64,000 bases of DNA from Minisyncoccota bacterium (GTDB taxonomy: Bacteria; Patescibacteriota; Minisyncoccia; Phycocordibacterales; UBA12079): the NCBI GenBank assembly GCA_023135835.1, contig JAGLSI010000001.1, forward strand, positions 2,400-66,399, given 5' to 3'. The position numbers and the translations under genes are program-made. Shown piece by piece: positions 512 through 53,007 of this stretch. Position 1 is the first letter of the stretch, and every line of letters begins with the position of its first letter. The notes below the pieces were generated by a model. The model saw only the letters and a list, made by a program, of their open reading frames with translations. It was not told the origin of the DNA and did not search any database.

Positions 512-530
512 TATTTGATATAATATTTAT

Positions 531-1199
531 ATGCAAACAATTTTAATCACAGGAATAGATAAAGGAATAGGGAAGGTTATAGCACAAAAGTTTTTAAGTG
601 AGGACTATTTTGTTATAGGAACTTCACTTCAAAATGAAGTTGATTTTTCAGATGAAAATTTAAAAGTTTTTCAAATGGACTTACTTTCAGATGAATCTAT
701 AAAAAACTGTGTGCAAGAGATTAATAATTTCAACAAAAAAATAGATATTTTAATAAATAATGCTGGGGTAATGGTAGATAAAGAAGAAACTACAGTGATA
801 AAAGAAAAATTAAGAAAAACCTTAGAGATAAATTTAATTGGAACAATAGATTTTACAGAACAAATCTTATCTGAAATAAATGAAGGAGGGCATATTATAA
901 ATATTTCTTCTTCAGCTGGGTCAATGAGTAGAACAGGAAGAGAAAGTAGGATGCCTAATCATTATCCATCTTATAAAATTTCTAAAATAGCTTTGAATAT
1001 GTATACAAAGACATTAGCTTTAAGACTAAAAGATAAAATTATAGTTTCATCTGTGCATCCAGGTTGGGTAAAAACCGATATGGGGGGACAAGAAGCAAAC
1101 CTTACTATAAAAGAATCAGTAGAAAATATTTTTAATTTTGCAATAACAAAACCAGAAACAGGGCAATTTTGGTTTAAAGGAGAAAAATATCCTTGGTAG
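531..1199 (+). CDS. short-chain dehydrogenase/reductase (SDR) family oxidoreductase
   Basis: N-terminal TGxxxGIG Rossmann motif (ILITGIDKGIGKVIAQKF), NNAG motif, catalytic YxxxK (YKISK). Confidence 0.8.
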   Translation: MQTILITGIDKGIGKVIAQKFLSEDYFVIGTSLQNEVDFSDENLKVFQMDLLSDESIKNCVQEINNFNKKIDILINNAGVMVDKEETTVIKEKLRKTLEINLIGTIDFTEQILSEINEGGHIINISSSAGSMSRTGRESRMPNHYPSYKISKIALNMYTKTLALRLKDKIIVSSVHPGWVKTDMGGQEANLTIKESVENIFNFAITKPETGQFWFKGEKYPW

Positions 1200-3124: not shown

Positions 3125-3152
3125 AAGGGAATTTAAATAAAAAATACTATGA

Positions 3153-3272
3153 ATCCTGTTAGAGATTTGGCGAAAAATATTTATTTTATTTTTTTAAGAA
3201 TAATAGGGATAAAGAATTTATTAATTTAATCGAGAAACGTTTATCCAAGGATAAACTATCTCTAATGGGATG
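3153..3272 (+). promoter_or_regulatory. conserved leader stem ATCCTGTTAGAGAT / ATCTCTAATGGGAT enclosing ~90 nt AT-rich loop; 3' arm overlaps secE AUG
   Basis: 14-nt arms are reverse complements (with G-U); same arrangement recurs at 13934-14030 and 34813-34913. Confidence 0.5.
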
Positions 3273-3455
3273 AAAATAATTGATTATATAAAAGATACAA
3301 GAGGAGAATTGAAGCATGTTTCTTGGCCTACAAGAAATCAGGCTATTTGGTTTACTGTGATTGTTATTATTGTTTCCATACTAACAGCTTTTTTCTTAGG
3401 TTTTTTTGATTTTATTTTTTCATTAGGTTTAGATAACTTTATTTTTAGTAAATAA
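3270..3455 (+). CDS. secE: preprotein translocase subunit SecE
   Basis: 61 aa, single C-terminal TM, KHVSWPTRNQAIWFT motif, immediately upstream of nusG. Confidence 0.75.
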   Translation: MKIIDYIKDTRGELKHVSWPTRNQAIWFTVIVIIVSILTAFFLGFFDFIFSLGLDNFIFSK

Positions 3456-4012: not shown

Positions 4013-4096
4013 GGAGAGAGTAAAGCGACGGAGTTATTTAGATGCTTCTAAGTATAAAATTACTTATCTAGATAATAAAATTAATAAATAATAATA

Positions 4097-4198
4097 GAAA
4101 GTTCATAAAGTCCATAAAGTTTATAAAGTGAAAAAATTGTTTTACAATTTTTTAAAAAACTTTTAACTTTTAACTTTATAAACTTTTAACTAAAAGTT
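4097..4198 (+). repeat. intergenic inverted-repeat leader element copy A (GTTCATAAAGTCCATAAAGT...central hairpin...ACTTTATAAACTTTTAAC) ending at rplK AUG
   Basis: one of seven similar tripartite elements in the window. Confidence 0.7.
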
Positions 4199-4621
4199 AT
4201 GGCAAAAGAAGCAATAAAAAAAATTAAATTACAGATTGAAGGTGGGAAAGCTACACCAGCCCCTCCTTTGGGTCCTGCTTTAGGACAAGCGGGGATTAAT
4301 ATTGGGGAATTTGTAAATCAGTTTAACGCAGCTACAAAAGACAGAATGGGAGAAATTGTACCCGTAGTTATATCTCTTTATGAAGATAGGTCTTTTGATT
4401 TTATAACAAAAACTTCACCTGCTTCAAGAATGATTTTGAAAGCTATTGGAGAAAAGAAAGGTTCTGGTAAAAATTTAGTAAAAAGAGCGGGAACAATTAC
4501 CAAAGCTCAAGTTAGAGAAATTGCAGAAGCAAAATTAGTAGACTTAAGCGCTAATGATGTTGATCAGGCTATGAAAATTATTGAAGGAACAGCAAGATCA
4601 ATGGGAGTTGAAGTTAAATAA
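4199..4621 (+). CDS. rplK: 50S ribosomal protein L11
   Basis: [35 protein letters not shown] signature. Confidence 0.95.
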
Positions 4622-13933: not shown

Positions 13934-14030
13934 ATCCTGTTAGAGATTAAGGATTAGTTTATAATTTAAAAATATTATTAATTTAATTTAAAAAGATAAA
14001 ATCTATAAAAATTTTATCTTTAATAGGATG
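13934..14030 (+). promoter_or_regulatory. conserved leader stem ATCCTGTTAGAGAT / ATCTTTAATAGGAT overlapping AUG of 14028 gene
   Basis: second copy of the secE-type leader. Confidence 0.45.
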
Positions 14031-23528: not shown

Positions 23529-23727
23529 TAGTTGAAAGTTCTTAAAGTCTATAAAGTTAAAAGTGAAAAAATTTGCAGAGCAAATTTTTATAACTCTTAA
23601 CTAAAATAAAAACTTTATAAACTTTTAACTTTATATGCACTGCATATAATTCCTACACTCGGATTATATGAAAATTCATTTTCATAAATCCTCACTTGAA
23701 ATTATAAACTTTTAACTAATTAAAATT
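23529..23727 (+). repeat. inverted-repeat leader element copy C (expanded, ~200 bp)
   Basis: GTTGAAAGTTCTTAAAGTCTATAAAGT...gaaaaaatttgcagagcaaattttt...AAACTTTTAACTAA. Confidence 0.65.
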
Positions 23728-29371: not shown

Positions 29372-29521
29372 TAGTAGACTTCTTTAAAAATTATTTTTAA
29401 AGCAGGTGGTCGAAGTCCGACCTCTTAACTTGTATACCAGTGATTTTTAATTATTAAAATATTGTTTAATTATTACTGAGGTCGTACTTCTTTTGAAAAA
29501 ATAATTTTTAAAGAAGTCTAC
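29372..29521 (+). repeat. structured element: 24-bp perfect outer stem enclosing GAAGTCCGACCTCTTAACTTGTATACCAGTGA core (copy 1)
   Basis: core re-occurs at 33514-33547; candidate ncRNA or leader. Confidence 0.45.
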
Positions 29522-29659: not shown

Positions 29660-32600
29660 ATGAGTATATTTAAACTTAAGGACACTGCGGTAATGAAAGT
29701 TATCTCAGTTTTCGCAGGTAGTGCTATGGCTCTTACTCTTGTGTTTGGTGGTGCAGTTGCTCCAGCTCAAGCTCAAACAGTAGAAGAACTTACAGCACAA
29801 ATAAATTCTTTGCTAGCAATGATTACATCTTTGCAAGCTCAATTAACAACAATCGGAGGAGGTACTGTATCAGGAGTATCTTATAGCTTCACAACAAACC
29901 TTTCACAAGGAGATAGTGGGGCAGACGTTTTGAATCTTCAAAAAGTTCTTAACATGAGTGCAGACACTCAGGTTGCAGTAACAGGAGTAGGTTCAGCAGG
30001 ATTGGAGACAGAATATTTTGGTTCTTTGACTAAAACAGCTGTAATTAAATTCCAGAACAAATACGCTTCTGAAATTTTGACACCAGTTGGATTAACAGCA
30101 GGAACAGGATATGTTGGTCCTTCAACAAGAGCTAAATTGAACACAATGACAGCTCCAGTTGTACCAGTAACTCCAATTGACCCAACAACACCAGTTGTAG
30201 TACCTACAGGAACAGGATTAACTGTTTCAGCAGGAGCACAACCTACAGCTAATTTAGCTGCTGGAGGTGCAGCAAGAGTACCTTTCACAAAAGTAGTACT
30301 TACAGCTAGCGCTGATGGAGCTGTTGTAGTTGACTCTATTTTAGTAGAGAGAACAGGTTTGTCACAAGACGCTGCGTTCGCAGGAATCGTTCTTTTGGAC
30401 GAAGATGGAACACAACTTGGGATTGCAAAAACTTTGAACTCATTACATCAAGCAACTGTTGGAGAAGCCTTCACAGTTAATGCGGGAACTTCAAAGACAA
30501 TTACAATCGCAGCTAACATGACTACTAAAACATTGATGGCTGATTACACAGGGCAAGTTGGTTCATTGACAGTAGTAGGAGTAAATACTTCAGCTACAGT
30601 TAACGGAGCTCTTCCAATTGTAGGAACAAGTCATACAATGAACTCTTCTCTAACAATTGGAACAGTTTCAGTTGCAAGAGGAATAAATGATCCAAATACA
30701 GCTGCTACAAAAGAAGTTGGAGTATCAGATTATACTTTCGCTTCAGTTAAGATAACAGCTGGTTCAGCAGAAAAGGTTAGAATTCATTCTTTGAGATGGA
30801 ATCAATCAGGTTCAGCTTCAGCAGCAGATTTAGAAAATCTAAAAACTTATGTTGACGGAACAGCTTATGATATTACAGTTTCAGCTGATGGAAAATATTA
30901 CACAGCTGACTTTGGAAGTGGAATTGTGATTGACAAAGGTCTTTCAAAAGAAATTTCAATCAAAGGTGATATCGTAGGAGGATCTGGAAGAAATATCGTA
31001 TTTGATATTTATAAATCAACTGATTTATATGTAACAGGAGAAACTTACGCATACGGAATTACACCACCAGCAGGAAGTGGAACTGCAGCTACAACTGGCT
31101 CAGATTTTCTTGCAACAACACCGTGGTATGATAACTGTCATGTAACAGTTTCAGACGGAACTCTAACAGTTTCTAAAGCGACTTCAGTAGAATCACAAAA
31201 TGTTGCTGAGGTTGTAGCTAATCAAGTTCTTGGAGGATTTGATGTAGAAGTTAAAGGAGAAGCCGTTTCAGTAGCTAGTCTTGTATTTACAGGAACTATC
31301 GCTGGAGCAACAGGAGGAGTTGGAACAGATATTGATAATGTTACTTTGATAGACGCTAATGGTTCAGTAGTTGCTGGTCCAGTAGATGCTACAGGAGCTG
31401 CATTAACTGCAACTGTTACATTCTCAGATACAGTAACATTCCCAATTGGAACAGGAACTTATACATTGAAAGGTCAATTAGCGAGTGCGTTCGTTAATGA
31501 TCAAACACTTGTATTTGAAACTGATCCTGATGATAACTGGACAACAGTTACAGGACAAACAACAGGAAATGCTATTGTTCCTGCACCAACATCAGCTGTT
31601 ACTTCAAATACAATGACAATGAAAGCTGGTTCAGCTGTAATTAGTACATCTGCAAGCCCGGTAGCACAAAACATTGTAGCTGGAGCACAAAGCTTTGTAT
31701 TTGCTAATTTCCAATTTGATGCAACAGCATCAGGTGAAGATGTTAGATTTACATCACTTGTGTTATATAACACAGCTAGTGCTGAATCAGAATATCAAAC
31801 AGGATGTCAATTATTTGATGGGGATACTGCTTTGAACACTGGTTCAAATAAGAAAGATATTGCAGCAGATGAAGCAACATCTCAAACATTCACATTAGAT
31901 AGTGGTGGAGTGACAATTCCAAAAGGAACATTAAAGACTATTGCTTTAAAATGTAACCTTTCAGCTTCAGCAGTTGCTCAAACTTACTTGTGGAAGATGT
32001 CAGCAGAACAATCAGGAACAGGTCTTGACTCTGGAACAACTATCACAATTGCAGCAGCTAATGTGACTGGAGATGGTCAATTGATGTCATCTACTGAAAA
32101 AGGAACACTTACAGTTACTGAACAATCAGGTGCTTACACAATTGCAGCGGCTGGTACTACAGATGTAACTCTAGGTTCATTGAAATTCACAGGAACAAAT
32201 GAATCAATTGCATTGAAGAAATTAGCTCTTCAACTAACAGATGCTTCAAGTACACCTTCAGATTTAGTTAAAGTAACTTTGTGGGATGGAGCAACAAAAG
32301 TTGGTGAAACTATCTTCACAGGTACAAACAATAATGCAACATCAACTTTGTCAGGAAGTTTCATAATTCCTAAAGACGGAACTAAGATTCTAACACTTAA
32401 AGGTGATTTAGCAGAAATTGGTACATCTAAGGTTGGAACTCAAGGAGCATTATTGATCGTTAATTACGATGATGATGACCCTACAGGAACACAAGGTGTA
32501 GGTGATCAATCAGGTACAACTATTAGCAGAACTTCTGCTTCAACAGATTCAACATTTGATGGAGTAAGAGTATTTAGGGCTTACCCTGAAATGGCTAAGA

Positions 32601-33232: not shown

Positions 33233-33354
33233 CAGTTGAAATAGATAGGTTTTGTTAAATCTTATTAAGTTTCTGTCAAAATTTTTATCGGATCTTTTAA
33301 AGTGAAAATAGAAACAAGGCGAAATAAAATAGAACTAAGCAAAACAATAATAAA

Positions 33355-33384
33355 AAACACCCACATCCAGTGGGTGTTTTTTAT
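33355..33384 (+). terminator. rho-independent terminator (acacccacatccagtgggtgtttttt)
   Basis: 8-bp stem plus T6 downstream of surface-protein gene. Confidence 0.6.
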
Positions 33385-33513
33385 TATGTTATCAAAATCC
33401 TTGGATATCGGATGTCCAAGGATTTTCAATGGGCTCAAGTCGTTGATTCGTTGAAGTATTTTATAGCTTAATAATAGCGCTCCAAGCGCTACTATTATGT
33501 TGAATAAGGAAAG

Positions 33514-33640
33514 GAAGTCCGACCTCTTAGCGTGTATACCAGTAACCTTTAGCTATTTTCTTTTGTTTTGCTATTACTGAAGTCGGTCTTCTTAATAATC
33601 CAGCAGCCCATCGTTAACGAAGTCAGACTTCTTCTGACAG
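33514..33640 (+). repeat. structured element core GAAGTCCGACCTCTTAGCGTGTATACCAGTAA ... ATTACTGAAGTCGG (copy 2)
   Basis: ~85% identical to core at 29411-29442 and 29473-29491. Confidence 0.45.
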
Positions 33641-33649
33641 CAAACAATT

Positions 33650-33658
33650 TATCCACAA
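33650..33658 (+). promoter_or_regulatory. perfect DnaA box TTATCCACA, 16 bp upstream of TTGACT-16-TATTAT promoter (33675-33702)
   Basis: exact consensus 9-mer. Confidence 0.45.
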
Positions 33659-33853
33659 TTTGTTTAAAAACTCTTGACTTTTTTATTCACTTTGCTATTA
33701 TATAGAAAGTACTTGAATCTTGGCTTGCCAATATTTAGGTACTATGAAAAGAGTCATTATTCCTTCGGGGGTTCTGGCTTTTTTCATTGTCAAAATTCAC
33801 TTATTTAATAGTAGCGCTTGGAGCGCTGTTACTAAAATTCAGATAATATTTAC

Positions 33854-33915
33854 AGCGCTTGGAGCGCTGTAATAGGGTAATATAATTTAATTATGAATAA
33901 TATAAATTTAAAAAC
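33854..33915 (+). repeat. direct repeat (copy 1) of promoter region plus first 7 codons of gene 35132 (MNNINLK then stop)
   Basis: ~60 bp identical to 35095-35156, includes AGCGCTTGGAGCGCT palindrome. Confidence 0.7.
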
Positions 33916-33941
33916 AAAATGAGAGTCAACTATTCCAGTTA

Positions 33942-33963
33942 ACCTGCCTTTGCCGGCAGGCAG
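33942..33963. repeat. GC palindrome CCTGCCTTTGCCGGCAGGCAGG nested in a longer hairpin (33912-33995)
   Basis: member of 4-copy family (22969, 33942, 56330, 58004). Confidence 0.55.
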
Positions 33964-34040
33964 GCTGGAGTAATTAACTCTCATTTTGTTTTTAGTTTCT
34001 CTTGATTTAATCCAATATTTTTAATAAAATTAATAGTATT

Positions 34041-34764: not shown

Positions 34765-34812
34765 AGTTATCAAGGTTTTTGGGGGATATTTAAGGGTATA
34801 ATATAGCTATGA

Positions 34813-34913
34813 ATCCCGTTAGAGATTTGATAAAAATAGACAAAACGGGAATGAGAAATTAATAATTTAAATAATAGGTAATTTATTAAAAGTAAATTAT
34901 CTCTAACGGGATG
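34813..34913 (+). promoter_or_regulatory. conserved leader stem ATCCCGTTAGAGAT / ATCTCTAACGGGAT (perfect complement) overlapping AUG at 34911
   Basis: third and most perfect copy of the secE-type leader. Confidence 0.5.
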
Positions 34914-35054: not shown

Positions 35055-35094
35055 CAGAATATTGCAGCGCTCCAAGCGCTGCAATTAATAGTAG

Positions 35095-35156
35095 CGCTTG
35101 GAGCGCTGTAATAGGGTAATATAATTTAATTATGAATAATATAAATTTAAAAAAAT
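35095..35156 (+). repeat. direct repeat (copy 2) spanning promoter and 5' end of 35132 gene
   Basis: identical to 33854-33915. Confidence 0.7.
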
Positions 35157-52498: not shown

Positions 52499-52611
52499 AG
52501 TAAACGAGTCAAAAGTCAAAAGCCCATAAAGTCTATAAAGTGAAAAATCGCAAAGCGATTTTTCCAAAAAAACTTTTGACTTTCGACTTTACAGACTTTA
52601 GACTAAATATT
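52499..52611 (+). repeat. inverted-repeat leader element copy F
   Basis: GTCAAAAGTCAAAAGCCCATAAAGTCTATAAAGT...gaaaaatcgcaaagcgattttt...GACTTTCGACTTTACAGACTTTAGACTAA. Confidence 0.7.
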
Positions 52612-53007
52612 ATGAATAGAGATATAATTTCAGAATTAATAATAGGTATTAAAAATGCCGGAAAAGCACAAAAAGAAACTGTACAGTTTCCTTATTCTAA
52701 TTTCAAAGCTAAGGTTGCTGAGGTATTAAAGAAGGAAGGTTTTATTGAATTTTCATCTAAAATTGGAAAAGCCCCTAAAAGAGTTTTAGAGGTTGGTATT
52801 TCTTATAAATCTAAAAATATTCCAAAAATAAAAGATGTTGAGAGAGTTTCTAAGCTTTCAAAAAGAATTTATTTAGGGAGTGATGATATCAAGAAAGTTA
52901 AAAATGGTTTTGGTAAGTTATTAATCTCAACTTCAAAAGGGGTAATGACTGGAGAGGAGGCTAAAAAAGAAGGACTGGGAGGAGAGCCTTTGTTTAAAAT
53001 TTGGTAA
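52612..53007 (+). CDS. rpsH: 30S ribosomal protein S8 (ORF-track start 52540 translates the repeat)
   Basis: MNRDIISELIIGIKNAGKAQKETV... typical S8. Confidence 0.9.
   Translation: MNRDIISELIIGIKNAGKAQKETVQFPYSNFKAKVAEVLKKEGFIEFSSKIGKAPKRVLEVGISYKSKNIPKIKDVERVSKLSKRIYLGSDDIKKVKNGFGKLLISTSKGVMTGEEAKKEGLGGEPLFKIW

Follow-up and report, generated by a model that had tools for sequence, protein, structure and literature searches.

The Correia elements (CREE/NEMIS) of Neisseria are MITEs (miniature inverted-repeat transposable elements) of ~100-155 bp that are co-transcribed and form a long hairpin in the 5' leader, affecting mRNA fate. They have 26-bp repeats, a TA duplication, and promoter and IHF sites, are confined to Neisseria, and show no tie to start codons. 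Rickettsia palindromic elements (RPE) keep the reading frame of the genes that they enter, and their translation is included in the protein product. The IS30 family is characterized by a target duplication of 2-3 bp, marked target specificity, insertion next to its own ends, and tandems spaced by 2 bp, and piggyBac uses a TTAA target and the repeat CCCTAGAAAGATA. Here we describe a further element, present in three copies in a 64,000-nucleotide stretch of the genome of a Minisyncoccota bacterium (assembly GCA_023135835.1, contig JAGLSI010000001.1, positions 2,400 to 66,399; this whole stretch is called the window). Each copy is recognized by a pair of 14-base motifs in inverted orientation, the second of which runs into the start codon of a gene, secE in the first case. 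Very probably, the paired motifs mark either end of a MITE, a non-autonomous mobile element of 82-129 bp that is widespread but patchy in Paceibacteria/Parcubacteria of the candidate phyla radiation (CPR). The element is abundant and apparently undescribed, and it differs from described MITEs and palindromic elements in its ends, its target, the start codon that it rebuilds, and its near-exclusive residence on start codons.

Copies exist well beyond the window. A scan of public genomes, with one genome per prokaryotic species and a pattern in which the variable arm positions were left open and 22 arm positions were fixed, matched at least 119 loci, nearly all of them in metagenome-assembled genomes (MAGs) of Patescibacteria. 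The copy numbers, taxa, and gene products that follow are those among the matches listed. The taxa include Paceibacterota and Nomura-, Wolfe-, Yanofsky-, Taylor-, Zambryski-, Jorgensen-, Lipton-, and Sungbacteria; the labels follow the MAG records, and some of them, such as 'Saccharibacteria', Gamma-, and Deltaproteobacteria, are probably loose or due to mis-binning. Relaxing the arms within these matches gave 136 copies, with arms spaced 54 to 101 nt apart. Gene starts were called from open reading frames (ORFs) only, and by this measure 116 of the 136 copies adjoin an ORF of at least 40 aa that begins at the ATG embedded in the arm.

The flanks of these copies carry the signature of insertion. 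The terminal inverted repeats, ATCCCGTTAGAGAT ... ATCTCTAACGGGAT, are 13-14 bp long and perfect or near-perfect throughout the 136 copies. The element is found at (A)TG-R-A, with flanks laid out as ATG-R, element, G-R-A. In gene orientation, positions -4 to -1 before the 5' arm are A, T, G, and R in 81, 81, 78, and 90% of cases, and positions +1 to +3 after the 3' arm are G, R, and A in 100, 95, and 91%, the background for A at the third position being ~47% (ordinary genes). In 84 of 116 copies, the 2 nt that precede the element are identical to the 2 nt that follow it, with co-variation of the variable flank base on both sides (ATGA/GA in 60 of the gene-associated copies, ATGG/GG in 16, ATGT/GT in 4). 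Copies away from genes are flanked by T-NN-A, in the form of TTGA, TAAA, TTTA, or TCAA. The flanking repeat is a target-site duplication, which can be read as 2 bp (GR, with a 14-bp repeat) or as 4 bp (TGRA or T-N-N-A, with a 13-bp repeat). Because the element ends in ...GGGAT and the duplicated G follows, an ATG is rebuilt and fused to the intact ORF, and the original ATG and its promoter remain just 5' of the element. Copies have the size of a MITE and hold short upstream ORFs (uORFs) only. Helitron, IS200/IS605, and integron attC models were dropped, since the variable base is present in duplicate, once on either side of the element.

Comparison of relatives gave filled and empty versions of the same sites. 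Among 80 loci fetched through NusG homology, without use of the motif and covering 443 kb of relatives, the element lies 5' of secE only in the window and in L132 and L128 (85-86% NusG identity). The secE locus of the closest relative (L131, 89%) lacks it, as do those of six others at 85-87% and all more distant loci with a findable secE, that is, L131 and ~45 other loci. In L131, in turn, a short-chain dehydrogenase (SDR) gene carries a copy of 82 nt on its start, where the sequence reads TGATATAAT-AAATAT-ATGA, element, GCAAACAATT; the uninterrupted SDR site of the window, at 519-540, reads TGATATAAT-ATTTAT-ATGCAAACAATT. The window and L131 are thus reciprocally filled and empty at secE and SDR. 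The distribution is patchy, as the 443 kb of relatives hold three copies only. Of 67 pairs of copies from one genome, 12 have interiors more than 0.7 identical, versus 172 of 9112 between-genome pairs, and paralogous copies at different loci reach 97% and 92% identity. In some genomes the element has thus spread recently. Tandem copies exactly 2 bp apart occur in L005, L052, L090, and L100, with spacers GA, CA, CC, and TC. Such spacing is to be expected, as both junctions of every insertion present T-GA-A anew. Taken together, the flanking duplication, the filled and empty sites, and the near-identical intragenomic copies make this first of all a mobile element.

One of the tandem arrays includes a member of a sibling family with arms ATCCCGTAGTGAAAAAT, the part in common being the terminal ATCCCGT only. 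Sibling families were seen at L005 6019-6157, L051 1571-1702 and 2663-2795, L036 990-1089, and L119 3420-3490; they have the terminal ATCCCGT and ATGA/GA flanks in common, and their inner arms differ (ATCCCGTAGTGAAAAAT; ATCCCGTTAGAAGTC). This pattern suggests that the outer 7 nt are what the transposition machinery reads.

A copy at L113 4380-4489 splits the 5' end of a type IV pilin gene, in antisense, between the leader peptide and the FTLIELLVV motif. Excising the element plus 2 nt in silico gives back MLKKIKGG / FTLIELLVVIAI, and the gene is either disrupted or in some tolerated arrangement. Insertion in frame or in the manner of an intron was rejected as a general explanation: removal of the element convincingly restores a long ORF only in this pilin gene, which looks like plain disruption. 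In L129 and L130, the element-free secE starts read TATGATGAAT, with a doubled ATG. Excision that left both target copies would give ATGAATGAAT, to which these starts are close without being exact, and the doubled ATG may be an excision footprint or a coincidence.

Against the described systems, the element most resembles the Correia elements in general build, both being bacterial MITEs with terminal inverted repeats that lie beside genes and can fold in the leader. It differs from them in its 13-14-bp repeats, its (A)TGRA target with GR or TGRA duplication, its rebuilt ATG, and its residence in CPR bacteria. Like RPE, it is a small palindromic element tolerated in close contact with coding sequence in reduced genomes; unlike RPE, it carries stop codons in every copy and sits 5' of the rebuilt start codon. 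The 2-bp duplication of the 14-bp-repeat reading and the 2-bp-spaced tandems recall IS30, a likeness that is a lead rather than a test, but the repeat sequences are unrelated to those of IS30, and no IS30-like transposase or full-length element was found in the loci searched. With the 13-bp repeat (TCCCG...), the 4-bp T-N-N-A duplication and a repeat beginning near CCC are reminiscent of piggyBac/IS1380, although the target is TGRA rather than TTAA and no transposase was identified. REPINs and REP sequences, which are mobilized by RAYT transposases, likewise consist of two short inverted sequences, ~100 nt in all, that fold into a hairpin, and they are maintained in a lineage over the long term. 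REPINs, however, are extragenic, lack a target duplication, and have a GTAG-type cleavage motif, whereas the present element has a co-varying flank duplication and an association with start codons; membership in the REPIN/RAYT group was rejected on these grounds. Searches against Rfam gave no relevant match (whole window at gathering thresholds; two copies at E <= 10), and neither the arm sequences nor a description of the element was found in the searchable literature.

The genes that follow the copies are of every class. Their products include DnaK, TopA, SMC, PheT, UvrA, UvrC, TypA, enolase, DnaA, RecR, ClpB, PNPase, GatB, IF-1, RRF, and ribosomal proteins L9, L10, L25, L35, S2, S8, S18, and S19. 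Local density can be high: four copies lie within 7.7 kb in L042, and the genome of the window has five in ~71 kb, two of them just outside the window on the starts of genes for an FtsJ methyltransferase and RuvX. The original prediction, made from the three copies in the window, was that the motif may be specific to genes for membrane proteins. With FtsJ and RuvX in the same genome and all gene classes elsewhere, that link is explained as a sampling accident of three copies.

Although the element moves as DNA, its copies show constraint at the level of RNA. The two arms can pair as a 14-bp helix (P1), and most copies of 115-124 nt also have a 7-bp hairpin (P2) that adjoins the 3' arm on its 5' side and is arranged as AC-G-(6 bp)-loop-(6 bp)-C-U-AUCUCUAACGGGAUG; the remaining interior is A/T-rich and barely conserved. 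P2 shows double-sided changes at six of its seven pairs (91 cells versus 24 in shuffles) and a covariation score of 0.256 versus 0.076 for shuffled sequences, in a set of 51 copies that was selected for possessing the hairpin, and controls slid along the sequence collapse. All 68 copies bearing P2 comprise 35 distinct stems with 463 Watson-Crick pairs, 8 G-U, and 0 A-C (p = 0.008). Read in gene orientation, P1 has 7 compensated pairs, 17 G-U, and 9 A-C. Assignment of the strand from the G-U pairs of P1 alone (17:9) was dropped, this being convincing only in combination with P2; pooled, the ratio of G-U to A-C is 25:9 (p = 0.009). P2 is in sense relative to the downstream gene in 71 cases and in antisense in 5, and BLAST pairs between interiors are in the same orientation in 75 cases versus opposite in 2. 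The base pairs are therefore supported by covariation on one strand, as for structured RNAs in general, and the conserved long-range helix of the original prediction, with the A and U of the start codon as its last two paired bases, finds support.

The three orthologous secE loci (window, L132, and L128), found through NusG, allow this constraint to be viewed in place. Their arms are 89-96% identical and their P2 stems 79-100%, L128 having one compensatory pair and one wobble, and the rest of the interior is at 49-55% identity. In the secE codons of the same loci, position 3 is 57-66% identical and positions 1+2 are 87-93%. From this pattern, P1 and P2 look to be maintained in place by selection, and not solely through recent transposition; if this holds, the P1/P2 fold is probably needed for the downstream gene to be expressed. 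In ~30% of all copies, CGGG occurs within 30 nt after the 5' arm, where CCCG is never found, and this CGGG is a possible alternative partner for the 5' arm. No clear peak marked a promoter at a fixed position inside the element.

Within the window, the three pairs ATCCYGTTAGAGAT / ATCTYTAAYRGGAT lie as originally predicted (Table 1), and in every copy the terminal AT of the 3' arm is the AT of a start codon, opening ORFs for SecE (Pfam match, E = 5e-17), a 664-aa protein, and a 47-aa peptide. Motif matches at no more than two mismatches number 8 versus 0.97 expected, a count reached by 0 of 100 shuffles, and a covariance-model search with filters off returned just the three known copies and no fourth. 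For each of the three copies, the minimum-free-energy structure of the + strand RNA includes the arm stem (z = -2.1 to -4.1). Copies 1 and 2 have arm differences that are transitions only, leaving G-U or compensated (U-A) pairs on the + strand, and the arms of copy 3 are the perfect 14-bp complement that had been claimed. The ~85-nt loop of that prediction is in fact 91, 68, and 72 nt, and its statement that all three genes begin with a transmembrane segment is loose, as the 47-aa peptide alone has one close to its start: the span of SecE is at residues ~27-50, and the 664-aa protein has a highly charged N-terminus ahead of a hydrophobic stretch from about residue 84.

The individual copies vary in how closely they follow the consensus. 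Copy 1 has the ATGA-element-GA layout shared by 60 of the 116 gene-associated copies; GGGATAAAG in its interior is a possible alternative partner for the 5' arm, and its P2 stem is the same in the L132 copy and has a compensatory pair change in L128. The arms of copy 2 have four changes from consensus, with pairing as RNA kept at all of them, and the copy is without an upstream ATG. Copy 3 has ACGGGAA at 34849-34855 and an A/T hairpin (~34879-34899) adjoining the 3' arm.

Table 1. Coordinates of the start-codon element and associated features in the 64-kb window.
Feature	Position	Strand	Details
Unoccupied target site	519-535	+	TATAAT (519-524) + 6 nt + ATGCA, start of 222-aa SDR gene; site filled in L131
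Copy 1, upstream ATGA	3149-3152	+	Original start codon and left target duplicate GA (3151-3152); right duplicate 3272-3273
Copy 1, 5' arm / left terminal inverted repeat	3153-3166	+	ATCCTGTTAGAGAT; 5' strand of helix P1; copy scores 70.4 bits, E = 2e-12
Copy 1, A/T-rich interior	3167-3238	+	Poorly conserved, 49-55% identity among orthologous copies
Copy 1, hairpin P2	3239-3256	+	GTTTATC-CAAG-GATAAAC; AC before; single T, then 3' arm, after
Copy 1, 3' arm / right terminal inverted repeat	3258-3271	+	ATCTCTAATGGGAT; 3270-3271 = AT of secE ATG (3270-3272)
Copy 2, degenerate, 96 nt	13934-14029	+	Arms 13934-13947 and 14016-14029; 24.8 bits; ATG of 664-aa gene at 14028
TATAAT -10 box, copy 3	34797-34802	+	6 nt 5' of copy 3 upstream ATG; spacing expected for leaderless promoter
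Copy 3	34809-34912	+	Upstream ATGA 34809-34812; arms 34813-34826 and 34899-34912; 52.3 bits; z = -4.1; ATG of 47-aa gene at 34911

The sequence context of the target genes bears on how they are translated. Among 99 element-bearing genes, a -10-like hexamer ends 6-9 nt 5' of the upstream ATG in 27, against a background of 1-2 per position, and Shine-Dalgarno-like tetramers are almost absent at 5-11 nt. Copy 3 and the empty SDR site have the same layout of TATAAT, 6 nt, and ATG. Given this -10 spacing and the scarcity of Shine-Dalgarno motifs, many of the target genes, and many genes in these Paceibacteria, look leaderless or independent of Shine-Dalgarno pairing. Beginning at the upstream ATG, the uORF encodes MNPVRD... 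across the arm, has a median of 16 codons, and ends at scattered stops with no preferred frame. A conserved peptide or a coupled uORF was rejected, as the peptides are unrelated beyond the arm-encoded MNPVRD, with stops and frames as just described.

These features can be combined into a proposed mechanism. The near-invariant arms would be recognized by a DDE-type transposase supplied in trans. Persistence almost only at start codons may arise by loss elsewhere, in-gene copies being lethal and neutral intergenic copies decaying or being deleted; at a start codon, imprecise removal would be impossible and the fold would be maintained. There the element would be co-transcribed with the gene, often from a leaderless-type promoter, and P1 would loop out the A/U-rich insert in the transcript, placing the old and new AUG side by side at the base of the helix. 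P2 would end 14 nt 5' of the new AUG, slightly beyond the 30S footprint, and could act as an upstream boundary, a position that may explain the orientation bias. In the route that we prefer, ribosomes loaded at the original AUG would melt P1 by way of the short uORF and then initiate at the unmasked AUG. As functional analogies only, in the Min Jou interaction of phage MS2, too, a start codon is paired with a remote segment upstream that directly follows an initiation codon, and identical codons, here AUG, flank the base of a stable hairpin in the shunt of the cauliflower mosaic virus (CaMV) 35S leader and the bypass of T4 gene 60; none of these is a repeated mobile element, and coupling, shunting, or hopping is an analogy for the present one.

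Other explanations of the paired motifs are possible, and several would place the function on the arms themselves. In the original prediction, the helix was read as an RNA switch or operator acting in cis and dedicated to masking the ribosome-binding site and AUG of genes for membrane or secreted proteins. The helix does contain the A and U of the AUG, is present in the minimum-free-energy fold, and has its pairing preserved by wobble and compensatory changes. Such a switch is nonetheless extremely unlikely: the downstream genes include cytoplasmic housekeeping genes, which refutes the membrane-specific form, the ~45 orthologous secE loci without the element include that of the closest relative, target duplications and filled and empty sites mark the copies, and the interior holds nothing like a conserved ligand pocket. 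A conserved secE leader is not supported either, given the same element-free loci, L131 among them. For a riboswitch or gene-specific leader, the copies are placed neither at orthologous positions nor on one class of genes, and the interior, at 49-58% identity, is at background level where a structured core would be expected; as had been noted at the outset, no known riboswitch or leader could be assigned, and no Rfam family matches. If the two arms were instead paired DNA operators, with a repressor looping the ~100 bp between them and acting on DNA rather than RNA, it would be natural for two identical inverted sites to bracket the transcription start region and the start codon and for the arm sequence, and not pairing alone, to be conserved. 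This is very unlikely in view of the covariation of P2, the tolerance of G-U but not A-C on one strand, the compensatory changes between arms, the variation in arm spacing from 54 to 101 nt, and the target duplication in the flanks. Hardly credible is an invertible promoter (inverton), a segment flipped by a site-specific recombinase to switch the gene. Short inverted repeats around a small A/T-rich segment directly 5' of genes, and the occurrence of both interior orientations (71 sense, 5 antisense), are what it would produce, but there is no promoter at a fixed position inside, the -10 boxes lie outside and upstream, the targets are essential housekeeping genes, secE has the identical orientation in three samples of one species (L001-L003), and the target duplication and near-identical paralogous copies point to transposition.

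Two further explanations give the copies a function. In one, the element is a mobile MITE whose arms and/or P2 have been co-opted as the binding site of a conserved trans-acting factor, an RNA-binding protein or a domesticated transposase, that co-regulates translation or mRNA stability of many housekeeping genes. An arm sequence nearly invariant across many candidate phyla, arms conserved in place like codon positions 1+2, the 71:5 orientation bias, the conserved unpaired AC before P2 and U after it, and a start-codon occupancy about tenfold above target availability all speak for such a regulon. We consider it unlikely, as no candidate factor was identified, the element is patchy even among close relatives, gene sets differ by genome with recurrence on the same gene at about chance by our own estimate, and the arm invariance is partly an effect of ascertainment. 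In the other, P1 and P2 form a module that is cleaved immediately before the rebuilt AUG, either by an RNase of the host or autocatalytically as a new small ribozyme, to yield a leaderless mRNA in organisms for which translation of such mRNAs is routine. Many targets with a -10 box at leaderless spacing and without a Shine-Dalgarno motif, a rebuilt AUG that lacks one too and lies inside a stable helix, the adjacency of P1 and P2, which could stack into a ~21-bp helix, and the conservation of structure in place are consistent with processing of this kind. It is quite improbable, however, given that no known ribozyme or processing motif matches, that few unpaired nucleotides are conserved, and that five antisense copies sit on apparently intact genes.

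The preferred reading is thus a MITE retained at start codons, where translation would pass from the old to the rebuilt AUG. Several observations weigh against it. Searches for arm pairs 0.3-5 kb apart and solo arms over ~200 loci (~1.3 Mb) and viral contigs turned up neither an autonomous element nor a transposase gene bounded by these ends, so mobilization by a DDE-type enzyme is something that we infer rather than observe. The length of the duplication varies, the spacing from upstream ATG to arm being 0, 1, and 2 nt in 8, 82, and 6 copies. Fixing 22 arm positions in the scan inflates the apparent conservation of the arms, and the G-U excess of P1 is not significant by itself (17:9, p = 0.17). 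The uORF stop is at no fixed distance from the main AUG (median 71 nt upstream, with 12 of 99 ending in the 3' arm), and such scattered stops weaken a model of tight coupling. Finally, ATGRA sites at predicted starts number 142 versus 370 in intergenic sequence, ~28% of the sites at which insertion would not disrupt coding, and 116 of the 136 copies (85%) are on starts, an occupancy ~10 times the target supply. With start occupancy so far above supply, selection alone may not explain the pattern, and active targeting or a benefit is possible. A more speculative proposal, to which we assign a low probability, is that the element is more than a parasite that is tolerated and serves as a mobile, self-contained start-site cassette, in which P1/P2 would hand ribosomes from the original initiation site to the rebuilt AUG by a shunt or hop across the hairpin base, or by precise cleavage (host RNase or new small ribozyme) that gives a leaderless mRNA. 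Its transposition would also select true start sites, perhaps by way of the open complex at leaderless promoters. Aimed transposition would explain the ~10-fold occupancy of start codons.

The window contains other repeats besides the start-codon element. A second inverted-repeat element at 29374-29521 is bounded by perfect arms of 25 nt (GTAGACTTCTTTAAAAATTATTTTT / reverse complement), with 98 nt between them, and lies ~140 nt 5' of a gene at 29660 whose 1190-aa product is surface-protein-like. The interior of this element (GAAGTCCGACCTCTTAACTTGTATACCAGTGA) is found again near 33560, in a related stretch at ~33540-33680; its covariance-model (R1) score is weak (E = 0.2), and its arms are unrelated to those of the start-codon element. 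Arrays of a heptad, (C/T)ATAAAGT, at 4095-4200, 23530-23660, and 52500-52625 are inverted around a small A/T palindrome and lie directly 5' of genes (e.g., rplK at 4199), and a similar array is found 5' of secE in the relative L153; these could be operator/promoter architecture or another repeat family. The regions 33233-34040 and 35060-35113 include ~800 nt without a long ORF several copies of a palindrome (AGCGCTCCAAGCGCT / AGCGCTTGGAGCGCT), and a 40-nt inverted repeat at 33909-33994, and no Rfam family was found there. No tRNA, tmRNA, or rRNA genes and no Rfam families at the gathering threshold were found in the 64-kb window (1-64000).

Little work has been devoted to the mobile elements and non-coding RNA structures of the tiny CPR/Patescibacteria genomes. 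The element described here resides on the starts of essential genes, including those for ribosomal proteins, dnaK, secE, and topA. It poses the problem of how a gene can survive a transposon at its most sensitive base pairs. Gene callers can be misled by it, as each insertion may leave two ATGs ~100-125 nt apart and a spurious MNPVRD... uORF. It may also illuminate the choice of start codons in uncultured lineages that have few apparent Shine-Dalgarno sites and many leaderless promoters. If the preference for start sites is mechanistic, it would represent a new kind of target selection.

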